Origin: Negaprion brevirostris
Taxonomy: Eukaryota
Assembly (NCBI GenBank): GCA_030324005.1
Contig: JARDVH010000031.1
Location: 38,473,784 to 38,537,679, forward strand
Length of the DNA stretch: 63,896 nt
Direction of reading: 5' to 3'
Below are positions 18,501 to 36,500 of the stretch, piece after piece; positions within the stretch are counted from its first letter, which is position 1; each line of letters opens with the position of its first letter. Position numbers and translations under genes: made by a program. The notes under the pieces are model-generated. The model had not been told where the DNA came from and searched no databases. It was given only the letters and a program-made list of their open reading frames with translations.

Positions 18501-21500
18501 CCTTAATTTACAATGGCAAATTTTAAAATACCTAACTACATAATATGTTGATATACAGTTTAGTATTTTTTTTCCTGAATGCTAAATGGTAAAGTTATGC
18601 AGAATTTAATTGCACAGATTTCTAAATGTTGTGTATTGGTTGTATCAAATTGTCTTCAGTCTATTTAAAAAGTTACAATTCATGTATCTTGTCTCTTGTG
18701 ATCCCTTCTGTTAATGTGTTTATTTGGAAATTTTGCTGTCTATGGGTATGTTTTACAGTGTGTTTAATTTGGTGAACTCACCAATTTAGTTTGGAGATGA
18801 TGACATTGTTTGGTTTTGTTTAAATGTTAGACTGTTCTTTTACGGAATTGCAAAAAAAGTCCTTTTTGATGTATCACTAAATTATATATGAAACCTTTAT
18901 AGCTGCAGAACAATTCAAGCCATCTTTGAAACTAAAACCTACAGTCAAAGTTCCAAAGGAAGTAGAAGATATAGAAATTTCAGTACTGAAGAAAATTAGT
19001 AAGCTTCCCAAGGAAGAGAAAGATGAAGATGAGGGCATTATATCAAAAAAGGTGGATAGCTCCCCTAAAGAAGAAGACAAGTACATAGGGGTAGAACTTA
19101 GGAAACCAATTAAAGGTCCTGAGGAAGTGGAAGATGAAGAACATGTATCACGAAAGAAACCAGATGTAATCTTAAAAGAGAAAGAAACAGAAAGAGAAAT
19201 AATATTGCAGTTGGTTGATGAGATTCCTAAAATAGATAAAGATTATGGAAAAGGTGTATCAATAAAGAAATTAGATAAAATTTCTATTGAACAAGATGAT
19301 GCATACAAAATGTTACCAAGGAAAGGTACCAAAGTACAATCCAAAGAAATGGAGGAGGAGCCGGGTACACCACCGAAGAAACCTGATAAGATCACTAAAC
19401 AAAAGGAAGAAGCGGAAAAGATATCACTAAAAAAGCGTGACACAGTCCCTAAAAAAGAAACATTAAAAGAAAAACACATAATATCAAAGAAACTACCCAG
19501 TGATGAAGAAGATAGAAAAAAGCAAATAATATTGGAAACAGTTGGTGAAGTGCCTAAAATTGAAAGAGGCATAGAAAAGACTGTGCATTTAACCAGAACA
19601 GAACCAGTTCCTATGAAGGTAGAAGACAGAGAAAAGATATCTGTGAAGCGTACCCTAGTTGCTGATACAGAGAAGGATAAGGAGAAGATAATTCCATTGA
19701 AGGAACCTAGTCAAAGCCCTATAGAACAGAAAGATGAAGACAAACATTTGGCACTGGGAAAAGATAGGACATCGCCTCAGCTTGTGGAGGAAAAGGAACA
19801 CCCTAGTCTGAAGAAAGTTGACCTTCCTAAAATTATTCATGAAAAGACCAGGATTGCACCATCTCTTGAAAAAGAGGCACCCAAAAGTATAGAAATTTAT
19901 CCAGTTGATAGGATACCCAGGAAGACTGCTCCTGAAGAGCCTGCATCAAAATTGGTACGAGAGGTTACTGCAGAAGAGGCTGCCGATATTACCAAGACAA
20001 CATATGAAAAGAAAATGGTACCCTCCAAAGAAAAACCTCATGAAACACCTTTAAAGGTTGGAAAAGGGAAAGTTCTGGTTTCAAAAGAGCTGGAAACAGC
20101 TTTACTGAAAAAAATTCCCTCAAAAGGAAGTGCATTTGATGCAAAAGAACCACAAAAGATTCACAAATTACCTGAAAAGGCTGTGGCAGCTTATAAAGAG
20201 AAAACACAAATTATCCCTACTAAAATGGATAAAGGGAAAGTATCTGACGAACAGGAACCAGTGCAGTTAGAACAATTCCCCTTGAAAGAAATTCTGTTTG
20301 AAGATAAGGAATTAGAGAAAATAAAGAAAGTTCCTGAAAAGACATCAGTGATCCCTACAGCGAAAGTTGATGAAACACATTTTAAAATTGCAAAAGGAAA
20401 AATTCCTGTTTTGGAAGAACAGAAAGATCACATAGAGCTGAAGAAAGTTCCTTCAAAGGAAGTTGTAATAGAAGAAAAGCCACAGAAAGTACCAGTAAAG
20501 AAAGTACTGACACCCAGGGATATATCTGATATTGCACATCCTAAAATTGGAAAGGGAAAAGTACCAGTGTCAGAAGAAAGAGATCAAGCACAGGTGAAGA
20601 AGATTCCTTCAAAAGAAGCTGCGGTAGAAGAAAAGCCACAGAAAGTACCAATAAAGAAAGTACTGACACCCAGGGATATACCTGATACTGCACATCTTAA
20701 AATTGGGAAGGGAAAAGTACCAGTATCAGAAGAAGAAAAAGATCAAGCACAGATAAAGAAAATTCCTTCAAAAGAACCTGCAGTGGAAGAAAAGCCACAG
20801 AAAATACCAATAAAGAAAGTCCTGACACCCAGGGATATACCTGATGCTGCACATCTTAAAATTGGAAAAGGAAAAGTACCAGTGTCAGAAGAAGAAAAAG
20901 ATCATGTACAACTGAAAAAGATTCCTTCAAAAGAACTTGTGATGGAAGAAAAGCCACAGAAAATACCAGTAAAGAAAGTACTGACACCCAGGGATATACC
21001 TGATACTGCACTTCCTAAAATTGGAAAGGGAAAAGTACCAGTGTCAGAAGAAGAAAAAGATCAAATACAGCTAAAAAAGATTCCTTCAAAAGAACTTGTG
21101 ATGGAAGAAAAGCCACAGAAAATACCAGTAAAGAAAGTACTGACCCCTAGAGATGTGGCACACCTTAAAGCAGGCAAAGGGATTCCATCAGCTGTTGAAA
21201 AAGAATTGGAACTAACACAAATTAAAAAAGTTCCCTCTGAAAGCATCTCCACAGAAGATGACTACGAAGTAGAATCAGAAGAAATGTCAATAGAAGAATT
21301 ACGGGACAAAGGAGACTGGGAATGGGAATTAACTGAAGAAGAGGAGGAATATGGCTCATCTGTTGACTGGGAGCATGAAGATGATGAAGAGTTTGAGGGT
21401 GCAGTTGAGACTCCTTCAAAGCCTTACAAACAACGAGGTGAGATGGCTGCTGCACATCTACCAAACTGATTGTTCATATCTTGTGCTTTGGAAAATGGAT

Positions 21501-24500: not shown

Positions 24501-27500
24501 GAAATGTGCACTCCTTTGCCCTACCAGCACTGATGGTCAGTATTAGCAATAATTTTAGGTGGGGCACACACCACTTGTTCATATGTTTAATCTCTACTGT
24601 CATAATGTTTAGTCACCATTGTAAATCTCTGTCAGGATTTTCTGTTCTTTTCCTACATGGACTAAAGAAATGTAGCAGCAGGCTTTAGTCACAAGTGGCC
24701 TTTTGAGCTAGATCCTGAACTTCATAGGTACTGACTTGTAGGTAACACTACAGTCAAGTTACTAGTTTAATAAAATGTTTCCTATGTTGCTTATCATCAT
24801 GAAATAGAAATCTCTGATAATATTTTGACATACCAATTCTAAAATTAAGTAATTTTACAATCAATGGAAAATTTCAACCTTTACTTACACAATTAAACCG
24901 AATCCTATCTACCCTAGTCCAGCCTTTTTCCAGCAATATCCATGACTCTTTCAATGCCCACAGTCACTTTAACAGTCTCCAATTTTCTAGTGCTAACCAT
25001 CTTCCCTTCACCATGGACATATATTCTCGCAATATCTCCATCCTCCACCAGAGTAGCTTACATTAACACTGCAATGAAGTTGCTGTGAAAATCCCCACAC
25101 TCTGTTCAGACCAATGCACCTAATCAGCATGTCTTTCAAACTGTGGGAAGAAACCAGAGCATCAGGAGGAAACCCACGCAGACACAGGGAGAACACACAA
25201 ACTCCACGTGGACAGTGACCCAGGCCAGGCAAATCTGGGATCCTGGCGCTGTGGGGCAGCAGTGTTAACCAGTGTGCCACCATGCCACCCCCTGAAACCC
25301 ATTGGATCTCACAGCTACCTTGGTCATACTGCCTCATTCCCTGTTTCGATAAGGACAGCACTCTATTTCCCAAGATTCCCTGTCTCAGTTGCACCTGATG
25401 ATGCAACTTGACATGGTACCACTTCTATGCTATCAACCTTCATATTCAGTGGATCATCCGCTGCCATTTGCACTACCTCCACTCACCAAACACCTCTATC
25501 CTCCTCTCAGCTTTCACCACTTTGCAGGAACCCTATCCTTCATTACATTCCTAATTCTGATTGCAGATTGTTGTTGCTATGTCTGGTATATGTTTTGCAA
25601 AACAAGTGGAAATCATACAAATCAGAAATTCACAATCAAGAAAACTTGTGTAGACTTTTCAAGTCTGCTTTTGATGATATTACTTGTGATTGGATATTTT
25701 CAGCCTGCTATTCTAATGGGAAAATGACATTGAATGTTCTATTTTAGAACGGGAGATAGACATACTTTCAGAATTGCAAAGCGTGGAAGTGTATGAGAAA
25801 GAGACAGCCACTTTTGAAACTGAGATCTCTCAAGATGTTCCAGTTGAGTGGAAGCTCAAGGGAGAAATCCTCCGCCCATCACCTGTAAGCTTTTCTTCAA
25901 AGCTGGAATCTTTGTCATTAAAAAAGTGGAATTCAAGATTGTAATACTGTTTTGTAAAAATGTACCTAAATTATGATGTTTTTAAAAATTTCAGACCTGT
26001 GAAATGAAAGCAGATGGTGCAAAACGTTTCTTGATCCTTCACGATGTCAAACTGGACCAAGCTGGTGAAGTTGTCTTCAAGGCACGCAATGCCACATCCA
26101 TTGCTTACCTAAGAGTTAAAGGTAACTAATAATCCTTAAAGAAAATGTCAGTGCAGTTTTATTTATGATGAAAAAAGATGAGAAATTTTAAAGTAGTTTG
26201 TTTTTTGTTTGATTAAAATGTAATTTTGCTTGCAGAAATTGAACTTGACTTTGAGGCACCACTAAAAGATGTGACTGTTCCTGAAAAGCACCAGGCACGA
26301 TTTGAGTGTGTGCTTAACAAGGAGGTTCCCAAAATTCTGTGGTCGAAAGGTACCGACATTCTTAAGGCTGGTGATAAGTATGATTTAGTTGCTGATGGAA
26401 AGAAACACATCCTTGTTATCAATAAGTCAACCTTTGATGACGAAGGAGATTATAGCGCTGAAATTGTGGACAAGAAATCAACTGCAAAGCTCACTGTAAC
26501 TGGTGAGTCCTTTTAATTAATTACATTTCATAGTTAAACAATTTGCTGATTTAATGTGTTGGTAATATTTAATTGATCTGACTTCAGTTTGGCTTATGGT
26601 TTGGTAATGTGATAATATATTTGTGAAGTCTTACTTAAATATTCTGTTGATTTTTACATTGTCTCTAGCTGACTCAACTTTTGTTTTTCTGAAGCAGTGA
26701 GAAACCTGTATAATTAAAGATGGAGATCCATCATTCAGAATATCACATACGTAGTATCCTTCTAGTGCAACATGAGGCCATTGAGTTTGCACTGACCCTC
26801 CAACAGGGCATCTTACCCAGGCCAACCCCTGTAACCCTGCATATTTAGCATGGCTAATCCACCTAACCTGCACATCTTGGGACTGTGGAAGGGAACTAGA
26901 GCACCCAGAGGAAACTCATGAGGAAAATATGCAACATGCAAACTACATGCATATAGTGACCCAAGGCCAAAATCAAACACGGGTCCCTGGTGCTGTGAGG
27001 CAGTAGTGCTAACCACTGCACCACAGTGCTGCCATATTAGATCAAAGCCCAGGACTGATCTGGGTTTGGGGAGTTCCCTTACCCTAATGCCAGGCTAGTT
27101 AGGCCACTTAAAAAGTATTATATTAAAGAAAGAACTTGTATTTATTTCATCGCTTTCTTCACAGTTTAGATGTACCAAAGCTCAATGAAATAGCAGGGTA
27201 TAAAAATGTCAATTTCAGTTGATTTATTAGTTACACGATTTTGAACTGTACAGTAACCGATCCATGCATTACTTCGTATTTCAGGCATGAGGTTGAAAAT
27301 CATTACACCACTAAAAGATCAGACAGTCAAAGAAGGTAACACAGCTCACTTTGAATTTGAGCTTTCGCATGAAAATCTCCCAGTGACCTGGTACCGGAAT
27401 GAAGACAAAATTCACCCAAGCAGAACGGTTCTGATCTCCACTGATGGGAAGAAGCATGTATTAGAAATTAAAGAAGCAACTCTTGATGATACATGTCAGA

Positions 27501-30500: not shown

Positions 30501-33500
30501 NNNCTGTTAAAGCTTCTATCAGCTGTTCGAGCATGTCTGGTATGTTCATTCAGTCCGATTCTGAATGGTTATCACATTTATTGAGGTGATTGTATCTGCA
30601 CTGAACATGCACCCCTGAGTCTTCAAAGTTATCCTCCTCAAAACTGAAGGAACATGAATGACAGAGCAGTTCCCTCCAGAATGCAAAGAACTCCAGTGGA
30701 GAACACAAAGAATTAGATTCACATTTTGTTCAGGTGTGAAGGGCCAAATGACCTACTCCTGCTCTAAATTTCTGTGTTTTTTATAATCTCTCTTCTCATC
30801 CCTTTCTGATACATGTCTCCTTTCTGTCCATTGATGGACACCAACTGGAGACTTCTTCACTCTCTTCAGTCCCATTTCACTGTCTTCTATTGCTCAGCTG
30901 CCCTGCTCTCTGTCCAGGCTCATTGTCTCCTCCTGTGCTGATATGTGATCTAATGTTAGCCACTGCTCCACCCACCTTTTTTTGTTCTTTGCTGTGTGTA
31001 CTATGTTTTCCTGAGGACAGAAGGGGAACAAATCTCTGCCTAATGGACATCTGACCCCCGATCATCACGCATTCCTCTGGCAAGGTAATGGGGCCTGCTG
31101 GTTGTCCATTCTCATGACATTTGGACAACAGTGGAAGCATGAGCCTTAAACTTGGTGGCCACAGGCATTCAAGCCTCATCTTGTATCTGATGCTGGGCCT
31201 TACACTTCTTTCACCTGTCTTCCTACTCCTTCCTCTCACTGGGGCACATTGCATGTTGCACTCATGAGAGCGATTTTGTTCCAGACATTCAGTTATGCTC
31301 ACCCTGGAAACATGGAAGAGGTAGTTGACCCTCTTTCTTCGTTCACCTTTGTTCATGTGAGCCATGTGCCGTCCCTGCATGATGCTGACCGCTGATGAGG
31401 CTGGAAGTCTGAAGCATGAACTTGAGATGCTGTTGCAAGAGAGAAAGTTGAAGCTGAAGGCATTGTCAGGATTCTCCTTTGCCTCTGCTACATTGAAGCT
31501 TCTGCCTTGTAGTCACTGTCACTCAGAAACAGTTCCTGGACCTCTGACTCTATCAGCTGGTTGGCGTCTTCCTTCCAGCTCCCATTGCAGAATTGGCTGG
31601 GCCTGGACACCATCGCTTTTATTATCCAAAGCCACCATGTAATTATAGTTGGCCAGTTATCCCTGCCAGTAATGACAATGTCACCCACTCCAGGTCTGTC
31701 GCTGGTTGGCACACTACGATGACTAAATTCTGCCTGATATGTTGTGTACAATCCTCTGTGTAACAGAACAGATAAAGAAATGATTTTAAAAAAGAGGGCA
31801 TCAGGTATTCCTGATGATTCACTTCTTGAAATGTTTTAACTGTTAACAGGTGTGAGACTCTTTCTCTTCAGGCAGTAAATTAGCTGTTTGTCTGTCATCC
31901 ACAGAGGCTGATCCTTATTTCACTGTGAAACTCCAAGATTATACAGCTATCGAGAAAGATGAAGTAATTCTCGAATGTGAACTCAGCAAGGATGTGCCTG
32001 TAAAATGGATGAAGGATGGCAAGGACATCATAGCTTCAAAGACAGTTTCAATGAAGGCTGTTGATAAACGCCGTATTTTGACGATCAAAAAAGTTGACAA
32101 TAAAGACAAGGGTGAATATGAATGTGACTGTGGAACGGACAAGACAAAAGCCACTTTGAATATTGAAGGTATCGAACTTCTGACTGAGTACAAGTAGATT
32201 CTTCAACAATTATAAAGTAACATTCTTTCCAAATGTTCAGTTTAAACATCCATTTTTAATTTTGTCTGCAGCTCGCATCATCAAGATAGTGCATCCATTG
32301 CATGGTGTAGAAATCTTTGAAGGTGAAACTGCGCACTTTGAAGTGGAGATCTCAGAAACAGATGTGCATCCTCAATGGAAGCTGAAGGGCGAAAGTTTGT
32401 TTATGTCACCTGTAAGTTGTTTCCTTCATTTATCTCAAAGTTAAGCATTCCTACCTGTATGTTGGAATTATTTGGTAATAAATGATTTCACTTCAGAATT
32501 ATGTTAATTTAATTAAACATTATAAAATCAACTTCCTAATAATGTTCAGTAGAACTCAAGGCCCTGAATATTTGTTCCTCAAGAAAGTTTTGGGGTAAAT
32601 TTTCTACAAATAAACATCAACCTAAAATATCTTGGGTGATTTTGTATTGGCAGCAATGTGAGATTATCGAGGATGGCAAGAAACATCTCCTTACCCTCTA
32701 CAATTGCAAGCTAAGTGATTCTGGAGAAGTTTTCTTCCAGGCTGCTAATGCTAAGTGCGCAGCTAATCTGAAAGTCAAAGGTAATTTTTAATACATTTGG
32801 AAGAATTTGTTACCTTTTTCTGAAGTTTGAATAATTGTAATTCAGGCTCGTCATGTAGTACTATTGTTCCATTAATTGTATGTGTGATTTGCATATGTTA
32901 TATCAGCATATTAAAATATATATATAAGTATGTAATACATATTGTATATGTCTATTTGAATAATTGGTCATTTTTTACTTCCTACACTCCCATTCAGAAA
33001 TTCCACTCACTTTCATTGTACCGCTTAATGATGTGAAAGTATATGAGAAAGATGAAGCAAAGTTTGAGTGTGAAGTGTCCAGAGTGCCCAAGACTTTCCG
33101 TTGGCTAAAAGGAATTGAGGAGCTTAAACCTAATGAGAAATTTGAAATTCTATCAGATGGGACAAAACATACATTGACTGTTAAACAGGCTGCATATGAT
33201 GATGAGGCAAAATATATGTTTGAAGCAGAGGACAAGAGGACAAGTGGCAAACTGATTATCCAAGGCAAGTGAATGGAGCAAAAACAATGTATGAATTCCT
33301 TAGTTAGTTTTCTTGGTGAGGCGGCTTGCATTTGATTAAAAATTCCTTTCTTCATAGGCATTCGACTTGAATTTACCAAACCTCTTGAAGACCAGACTGT
33401 GAAAGAGCGTGAAAGTGCAGAATTTGTCACTGAACTTTCTCATGACAACATACCGGTTGTGTGGTACAAAAATGACAAACGACTGCATCCAAGTAGGTCC

Positions 33501-36500
33501 GTGACTATGAAAGATGAGGATAAAGTCCACTCCATTACATTCAAAGATGTGACTATTGATGATACTTCCCTCATCAAAGTCGAAGCTATGGCTAAAAGTT
33601 CGGAGGCCAAGCTTACTGTAATCGGTAGGTATTGCATATGGAAACGTGTGAATGAATTTTGCTCACCGAACTTTGACACATTACGTTCGTTGTTTGACTG
33701 TTTTTCTAATTTGCTTATTTTTCTGGTTTTCTTAGAGGGTGACCCATACTTTATAAACAAACTGCAGGATTATACAGCTGTAGAAAAGGATGATGTTATC
33801 TTCCAGTGTGAGATCAGTAAATCTGCTGCTCCAGTTAAGTGGTTTAAGGATGGAAAAGAACTGATTCCTTCAAAGAAGATTCAGATTAAAACGGATGGGA
33901 AGAAGCGTATACTGATTATTAAACGGGCTCAGAAGAGTGACCAGGGACAATATTCATGTGACTGTGGCACTGATAACACAACAGCCAAACTAAACATTGA
34001 GGGTAAGAGTTTATTGATAGCATTTAGATACCCAATATCCTTTGCCCTTTGTATCTGTTTATTGTGGTGAGTGAACTTGCATTTTTAGCAAATTAGATGA
34101 AATTATTTTTAGTTATTAGTAATGTACTTTTCCAGGAAAATAACATTTGCACATTATTTTGCTTCAGAACGTGATATTAAGATATTACGTCCACTGTACA
34201 GTGTTGAAGTCACAGAAACAGAAACTGCTCGTTTCGAGACTGAAATTTCTGAAGAAGATGTACATGGCAATTGGATGTTGAAGGGGGAGAAATTGCATCC
34301 ATCTCCTGTAAGTTTTAAACATTAGACAAGCGCTGAGATTTCTCTTGTCTTCTTTCTCTCTTTCTTTCTTGCTGTCTTCCTTCCTTAAAGGTTTTTCTTT
34401 TTTTTCCTTAATTTAGGATGTTGAGATTAAAAAGGAAGGCACAAAACATTTTCTTACACTGTACAATGTGCACATGGATCAAGCTGGTCAAGTTGAATTC
34501 CAGGCTGCCAATGCCAAAACCGATGCCCATTTGAGAGTTAAAGGTAAACCTGCTGAATATCATAGATTAAGAATGTTAATAGCCAAGAAATATACACTTC
34601 TGAAATTCTTAAGACATTTTGGCATTTTATGAGGGATCTATATTTCTCTGCATGTTATGAATATCCAGAGCAATCTACAATGATGTTTTCCATTATAAAC
34701 CACTACAGGTTTCCAAAATTATTGACCACCTCAATAAACCCTTGATAAAGGGTTACATTGTTGGCAGCTTAAAGCAGAGAGCTGCCATATTTATTGTTTT
34801 GTTATTGAATAATCCCCTTTTTGGCAGCTGCTAAACTGCTGGTGGATGGAATTGGGCAATTGCCAAGCACACAGCTGTTTAACTAAACAGATCTGCCAGT
34901 ACTCTTGGATGGGTTGTTCCTCAAGTAGAAATGGGGGAGAACGACCATGGTAAGCAGTTTGAATGTGATGTAGGTCAGGTTTACTGTAAAATTCTTCAGA
35001 AAGTAAAATGTTGAGATACAGATTTCGAATTCACCCGTTGTTTTTATGGCCAGGCCTTGGTCATCTGGGTGGTTGAATAGTCACATTCTGTTGGGATATC
35101 TGAAATGAATCTTTCATTTTCTTGAGACTAATGGGCACACCCATCTCTTTTGCATTTAAAGCTCGGGTGGTTGGTTTACTTCGGCCCCTCAAGGATGTGA
35201 CTGTAACCGCTGGAGATTCAGCTACTTTTGAATGTGAACTCTCATACGAAGGAATTGAAGTGCAATGGTTCTTGAAGAACAAGTTACTTGAGCCCAGTGA
35301 AAAGGTATGATGAAAAATACTAAAACAAAAATAATATCCATGAGTTACCGTGTGAATGTGCATGGTTGGCTACACTGTGCAAAGCAACCTTTGTTTTAGA
35401 GTTTAGAAAAAAAACTTGAACTATTAATTCCTGACTACCAAAACCATGATTTTGCAAACCAAATATCCTTAACGTAAATATCCATGACAAACTTATTCCA
35501 CTTTCAATTATCTGAACTTTATATTATCTAGAAAAAAAAGGCAAGGCTGTACTATAGTTGAAATAAAGCATTAGAAATTTAAACGATGTTAAATTGATTA
35601 TAATTTCTTAGTATTTTGCAACAGTTGAATTACATCAATATCTTTTCAGGTGTCTGATAATNNNNNNNNNNTTGAAAGTTGGAAAAGATAGTTTGTATGA
35701 AAACGTGATTGTTAATTGAACTGGACAGTTGCCTACTTTAAACATGACTTGAATAATCATAAAGTGAATCTATTAATTATATAAAATTCTTATTTTGGAT
35801 CAGGTTGTTACACGTGCTGAAGGCAGAGTGCACACTTTCACCCTCAGAGACGTCCAATTGGAGGAGGCTGGTCAAGTCAAACTCACTGCTAAGGACTTCG
35901 CAACGTCCGCTAAACTTATTGTTAAAGGTGTGTAATGCCAATTATTTTCTTTCCAAAACAATATACTCGGCAATGTACTTTAAGACTGATGTGCTGAATT
36001 TTCATTTACATCTTTTGCAGAGCCACCAGTTGAATTCACTAAACCTCTGGAGGACCAGACAGTTGAAGAAGAAGCCACTGCTATATTGGAATGTGAGGTC
36101 TCCAGAGAGAATGCCAATGTTATATGGCTTAAGGATGGAAAAGAAATTCATAAAGGCAAGAAGTATGATATAATTGCTGATGGAAAAGTTAGAAAGCTTA
36201 TTATCCACGACTGCAAGCCTGAAGATGCCAAAACATATACATGTGATGCCAAAGACTTCAAAACTTCCTGCTTCCTCACTGTGGAACGTAAGTAGAATAG
36301 TGTCCAACGTTCATCCTCTCACATTCAGAGTTACATTAATGAAAATGTGTATGTGGCTATTTCTCGACCAATAAGACTTTGTTTCTTTCACAGCTCCTCA
36401 TGTTGAATTTATAAAGCCTCTCACTGATCTTGAGGTGAAAGAAAAAGAAGTGGCCAAATTTGTATGTGAAGTCTCACGTGAAAATGCAAAGGTTTGCTTT

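Follow-up and report, generated by a model that had tools for sequence, protein, structure and literature searches.

The 618-nt intron at 34544-35161 of a titin gene of the lemon shark Negaprion brevirostris is the orthologue of the intron from which Cronos titin starts in zebrafish, mouse and human. The 3′ end of this intron is likely to be the first exon of a Cronos-type mRNA of cartilaginous fishes, made from an internal promoter and translated from the ATG at 35131, a reading to which we assign a probability of about 0.7. In the mechanism that we propose, a muscle promoter inside the gene would fire about 100-260 nt upstream of the I96 exon, the end of the intron would serve as the first exon of the Cronos-type mRNA, and translation from ATG 35131 would yield a titin devoid of the Z-disc, proximal I-band and PEVK parts. 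The last 31 nt of the intron would act as branch point, pyrimidine tract and acceptor in the full-length pre-mRNA, and as start codon and leader in the Cronos mRNA, with an AAG acceptor by which either isoform would have a Lys in front of I96. The comparisons reported here establish that the intron is orthologous and the frame open, and, in part, that the leader has counterparts among other jawed vertebrates, Callorhinchus included; by analogy with zebrafish and mammals we presume an active promoter and its start site, translation, and a part played in assembling the sarcomere. It is the comparative leader data, and not the in-frame ATG alone, that carry the case for Cronos.

Orthology of the intron

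The window, that is, the whole stretch of 63,896 nt that was analysed, contains a portion of a titin gene running from PEVK exons through the distal I-band to the A-band. The features around the intron are as follows.

34417..34543, + strand: exon, second half of titin Ig domain I95 (RNA joints; primer translations; tblastn to bird, teleost, frog and Callorhinchus titin)
34544..35161, + strand: phase-1 intron, 618 nt, GT..AG, orthologue of the Cronos-promoter intron (RNA joints; primer mapping)
35162..35304, + strand: exon, first half of Ig domain I96 (match of guide e116 at 35230; RNA joints)
35804..35928, + strand: exon, second half of I96 (RNA joints; follows the leader and the first I96 exon in the Callorhinchus model A0A4W3IPV7)

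The I95 exon, whose peptide ends in HLRVK and whose last six nucleotides are TTAAAG, corresponds to zebrafish e115 and human e239, and the exon at 35162..35304 to zebrafish e116, mouse e223 and human e240. Splicing removes exactly the 618 nt at 34544-35161 in contigs of four RNA runs. The assignment to I96 is supported by a domain count from the exon at 32271-32411, which matches PDB 1TIT (titin I27) with an E value of 4e-16 and which we take to be I91, assuming that I27 and I91 are the same domain. In a DNA search of its own genome the intron had a single match, consistent with a repeat-free intron and with the first-pass annotation, which had seen no recognisable transposable element in it; an Rfam search of the window gave no match. 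A six-row tree of 131 residues groups the titin of the window with that of Callorhinchus milii (81% identity), with a support of 92/91 that is below the starred threshold, in line with a cartilaginous fish.

Zebrafish Cronos starts 110 bp upstream of e116, in the intron between e115 and e116, and its Met lies 7 residues upstream of the exon (Zou et al. 2015, PMC4720518). In human and mouse, Cronos starts 256-257 bp upstream of e240 and e223, respectively, and the Met lies 12 residues upstream; the human start falls between e239 and e240, in intron 239 (PMC4720518). The placement of this intron before the I96 exon, stated in the first-pass annotation, is borne out by the published reagents. The zebrafish guides of the PMC4720518 supplement map to 33767 (e113; 14/20, tied best), 34184 (e114; 17/20, best) and 35230 (e116; 14/20, tied second), in the published exon order. 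Moreover, the zebrafish junction primer translates to QLRVKAR where the window reads HLRVK-AR, and the exons on either side match titin of bird, teleost, frog and Callorhinchus. The Cronos starts of zebrafish, mouse and human map to this same intron and not to another one. These comparisons identify 34544-35161 as orthologous to the intron that holds the Cronos start in the three species.

The human/mouse e239 primer was rejected as a locus anchor. It fits a paralogous exon at 26097 (17/23) better than 34519 (15/23), and the case for orthology is therefore built on the order of the exons and on peptides. Neither the human nor the zebrafish primer for the alternative promoter had its best match within 34544-35161.

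The ATG at 35131

Three overlapping or adjacent features lie at the 3′ end of the intron.

35105..35125, + strand: out-of-frame upstream ORF of 6 codons, ending 5 nt before the candidate start ATG 35131
35128..35132, + strand: predicted branch point CTAAT, the sole yUnAy match in the last 40 nt of the intron
35131..35161, + strand: candidate Cronos start codon and 10-residue leader MGTPISFAFK (frame, leader profile, AAG acceptor), doubling as polypyrimidine tract

As first described, ATG 35131 is situated 31 nt, or 10 codons, upstream of the I96 exon, and the frame is open across the acceptor (MGTPISFAFK-ARVVGLL); the coordinates and the frame both hold. Of the 57 control titin acceptors elsewhere in the window (curated by hand, and RNA-verified only where RNA contig joints cover them), 7 have an in-frame Met no more than 10 codons upstream and 10 have one no more than 15 codons upstream, so that ATG 35131 by itself is near chance and weak evidence. 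Its Kozak -3 base is a C. The upstream ATG at 35105, 26 nt away and out of frame, has a purine at -3; in organism E it falls within a deletion and ATG 35131 is retained. Organisms D and E show no differences over 35117-35169, which is uninformative at a divergence of only 2-3%.

Leaders in other jawed vertebrates

Used as a query, the 59-residue read-through ORF retrieved 73 homologous ORF clusters, mostly unnamed, non-independent and biased to ORFs that have a start codon, in which the nearest upstream Met is at -7 in 40, at -12 in 12 and at -6 in 8 (60/73 together). The search of longer proteins returned 55 sequences, 52 of them anchorable, with the nearest Met at -7 in 17, at -12 in 16 and at -6 in 9. 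The position of the Met in the window, -10, is that of the nearest Met in none of the 73 clusters, and its alignment requires a gap of three codons. Published Cronos-specific primers translate to MSSPES in zebrafish, RHFVSS in mouse and AKLFLP in human (the last taken from PMC11827849). Six of the retrieved proteins contain MSSPES and one, P0024, contains RHFVSS; AKLFLP is matched over its first five residues in two.

The Callorhinchus protein UniRef100_A0A4W3IPV7 begins MFSPTSK-ARVIG, with its Met at -7, and is then spliced to the second I96 exon. Its leader, to be compared with MSSPESK of zebrafish, has five of seven residues identical to 29 of the 52 leaders compared. A profile was made from 24 distinct bony-vertebrate leaders of the -7 type, and 242 positions from other acceptor ends of the same gene were taken as the null. 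MFSPTSK scores 7.1 bits on this profile, a value reached by none of the null positions, and MGTPISFAFK scores 2.1 bits with one free gap, reached by 4/242. The leader of the window also exceeds all nine scorable Met-led control leaders, the best of which scores -2.3. These scores indicate that the ancestral leader was likely M-x-S-P-x-S-K with the Met at -7, and that the lineage of the lemon shark window has three extra codons. The earlier proposal that the internal promoter may predate the split of bony and cartilaginous fishes is supported in part: the intron is the Cronos intron, and bony vertebrates and Callorhinchus are likely to have a homologue of its in-frame Met. The promoter motifs on which the proposal also drew are considered below.

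No elasmobranch ORF carrying MGTPISFAFK was returned by the ORF and protein searches with the ORF of the window, and the exact ORF had no match in the protein collection searched. Two orthologous fish-like loci were found among the four of a metagenome scan. A search with the I91-exon ORF, tried as a control, gave one match, versus 73 for I96, but it was set aside as confounded, since no more than 0-5 five-residue words are common to that query and its named orthologues from bony vertebrates, and each I96 match shares at least nine.

Two further groups of leaders were observed. A second fish-like ORF group (P0047, P0050, P0072 and similar; L008:93-260) begins the exon with AR-SIG or AR-TIG, and here too a Met lies in frame, at -6 to -9, the leader of L008 being, for example, MSSTSPP; if these are a second teleost titin paralogue, as we infer, the Cronos start may be retained there too. 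P0004, P0005 and P0083, presumably bird- or reptile-like, have two Mets, one at -11 to -12 (M-T/A-N-L-K) and one at -6/-7, and are possible intermediates between the fish start at -7 and the mammalian one at -12.

Proposed dual use of the intron 3′ end

According to the prediction, the branch A of CTAAT, at -31, is the A of ATG 35131. In the teleost locus L007 the order is GACTAAC-A-ATG, with CTAAC adjoining the ATG, and the acceptor is the same AAAG. The zebrafish promoter primer ends in GACTAAC (PMC4720518), and GACTAA just upstream of the ATG is common to the window and L007. Of 115 unspliced orthologous ORFs (128 less 13 that were unanchored, without upstream residues or spliced), 88 have a K, Q or E just before the junction, which implies an AAG acceptor; an AAG acceptor is used at 3 of the 57 other acceptors in the window. 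Both the I95 exon and the intron end in TTAAAG, so that both isoforms would enter I96 via Lys-Ala. These shared features fit a constraint on a protein leader, and they also lend themselves to the alternative view in which splice signals give the appearance of one. The balance tips slightly towards a broader proposal, in which Cronos would be ancestral in jawed-vertebrate titin and active in sharks and chimaeras, with the start codon tied to the branch point throughout, one A serving as branch nucleotide and first base of the start codon, and the weak AAG acceptor kept for Lys-Ala entry in both isoforms.

Promoter motifs and transcripts

34663..34937, + strand: candidate promoter core, possibly constrained block, with CAGCTG E-boxes at 34825 and 34872 and an NFI-like site at 34852-34866

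The first-pass annotation had listed promoter motifs in the intron. The GATA, CArG-like and NFI-like sites and the CAGCTG pair are indeed present, and neither of the forkhead-like elements, TGTTTAAC and TAAACA, conforms to the consensus patterns used. In 2000 dinucleotide shuffles of the intron, GATA (34743) was reached 1678 times and the CArG-like site with one mismatch (34815) 693 times, both at chance level, whereas the NFI-like site with one mismatch (34852) was reached in 56 shuffles and the two CAGCTG in 15; four other CAGCTG pairs within 60 bp occur elsewhere in the window. No strict MEF2 or CArG site was found by a consensus pattern scan of 34544-35161. An alignment of the intron with those of human, mouse and zebrafish had been suggested as a check; compared with L007, the one teleost locus used, the upstream part scored no better than shuffles, 249 of 300 of which were as high. 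Given motifs that are mostly at chance level and an upstream intron that does not align with its teleost orthologue, the motif list is not support for a promoter. A one-mismatch NFI-like site does occur in both introns at a similar distance (-310 in the window and -344 in the teleost). The parts of the Cronos literature available to us yielded no defined promoter motif set.

Within the block at 34663-34937, organism D has 1 difference in 275 nt, and the next intron has 10 in 345 nt (Fisher p=0.015, for a block chosen after seeing the data); over the whole covered intron the comparison is not significant (p=0.27).

Four of six runs of known or presumed RNA were analysed. The full-length I95-I96 splice was seen in all four of these RNA assemblies of relatives and the intron was uncovered in them, in shallow contigs (depth about 2.5-37, tissue not given) with rare variants dropped, which can show presence and not absence, and in which neither transcript starts nor a coverage step at I96 are visible. 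The search for transcripts starting in the intron, proposed earlier, found only the spliced form, in contigs that are blind to starts. Regarding tissue, neither soleus nor diaphragm of the mouse has detectable Cronos (PMC7478974), and Cronos of the zebrafish embryo is mainly skeletal (PMC12854356). The Cronos protein has a size of about 2.3 MDa (PMC7478974).

Alternative explanations

Cronos could be ancestral and have survived in Callorhinchus while it decayed in the lineage of the window, where the ATG at -10 would be out of use, either as a remnant or as something newly created by the branch point, in which a G comes after CTAAT. Decay would agree with the shift of the Met to -10, where its A coincides with the predicted branch A, with the low score of the leader relative to Callorhinchus (2.1 vs 7.1 bits), with the uncovered intron in the four shallow assemblies and with the competing upstream ATG at 35105. 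However, the P at +4, the S at +6, the K at -1 and the open frame have all been retained, and organism E has lost the upstream ATG while the stretch from ATG to acceptor is unchanged in D and E, a weak argument at 2-3% divergence; the possible constraint on 34663-34937 points the same way. We regard decay as unlikely.

Slightly less probable still is that cartilaginous fishes have no internal promoter, and that the likeness of the leaders comes from constraint on splice signals, a CTAAY and a pyrimidine tract being read through as an S/P/F-rich peptide, with the Met arising by chance. The null distribution was drawn from real acceptor ends of the same gene, and 0/242 of its positions reach the score of Callorhinchus, whose Met is exactly at -7 and whose leader shares five of seven residues with 29/52 others; nor would splice signals favour the rare AAG acceptor. 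This reading is favoured by the 10 of 57 control acceptors that have an in-frame Met no more than 15 codons away, by a branch-point motif that adjoins the ATG in L007 and overlaps it in the window, by promoter motifs without conservation, and by the status of Callorhinchus A0A4W3IPV7, which is a gene model and not a transcript demonstration. A Cronos start in use in the shark is the reading that we prefer to both.

Relation to known Cronos titins

The window resembles zebrafish ttna/ttn.2 Cronos (PMC4720518) in the intron used, the in-frame intronic Met, the leader pattern M-x-S/T-P-x-S...K, the AAG acceptor and the GACTAA before the ATG. It differs in having a leader of 10 residues instead of 7 and an ATG that overlaps the predicted branch point, and its start and promoter activity are putative; its upstream intron does not align with the teleost locus. 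Mouse and human TTN Cronos (intron 239) share the intron and a short in-frame leader that mostly ends in K before I96, whereas their Met is 12 residues upstream, their start about 256 bp upstream, and their leader sequence different. The Callorhinchus milii Ig-domain protein model A0A4W3IPV7 is from a cartilaginous fish and has two exons with the intronic Met of MFSPTSK before I96; it carries no Cronos label, is known as a gene model, and has its Met at -7 instead of -10.

The reports of Cronos that we found concern zebrafish, mouse and human only, and in Callorhinchus the start is already part of an unnamed gene model. Our literature search, to which most subscription papers were inaccessible, found none on Cronos titin in sharks. 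A 2025 paper on elephant-shark connectin, which cites Zou, describes N2BA and N2A isoforms and does not use the word Cronos in its main text (PMC12241362). A Cronos start in cartilaginous fishes extends a known mechanism and is not a new one. If true, it would date Cronos before the bony-vertebrate split, to the ancestor of all jawed vertebrates, and argue for a basic role in building the sarcomere; the divergence of bony and cartilaginous fishes is placed at about 450 million years (PMC12241362). Titin truncations beyond the Cronos start are enriched in dilated cardiomyopathy (PMC4720518, PMC5068190). Cronos bears on this enrichment, and may explain part of the T2 band. The window provides exact primers, a test peptide and a deep outgroup for promoter footprinting.

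Other features of the window

The 111-nt intron at 33625-33735, which separates the I93 and I94 exons, keeps the frame and has no stop, and its retention would add 37 residues; this is probably due to chance. In the PEVK region, an open frame of 862 codons at 18881-21469 corresponds to a large exon with a 53-residue repeat, and its 159-nt unit is present in 4.9 copies at 20376-21144 with 88% matches. The PEVK exons at 510, 2796, 4754 and 8375 are near-identical duplicates of the KVPEVPKKPVPEPLKPKKE type; together with an intronic piece that is present twice (16-63 and 1387-1434), they point to recent tandem exon duplication.
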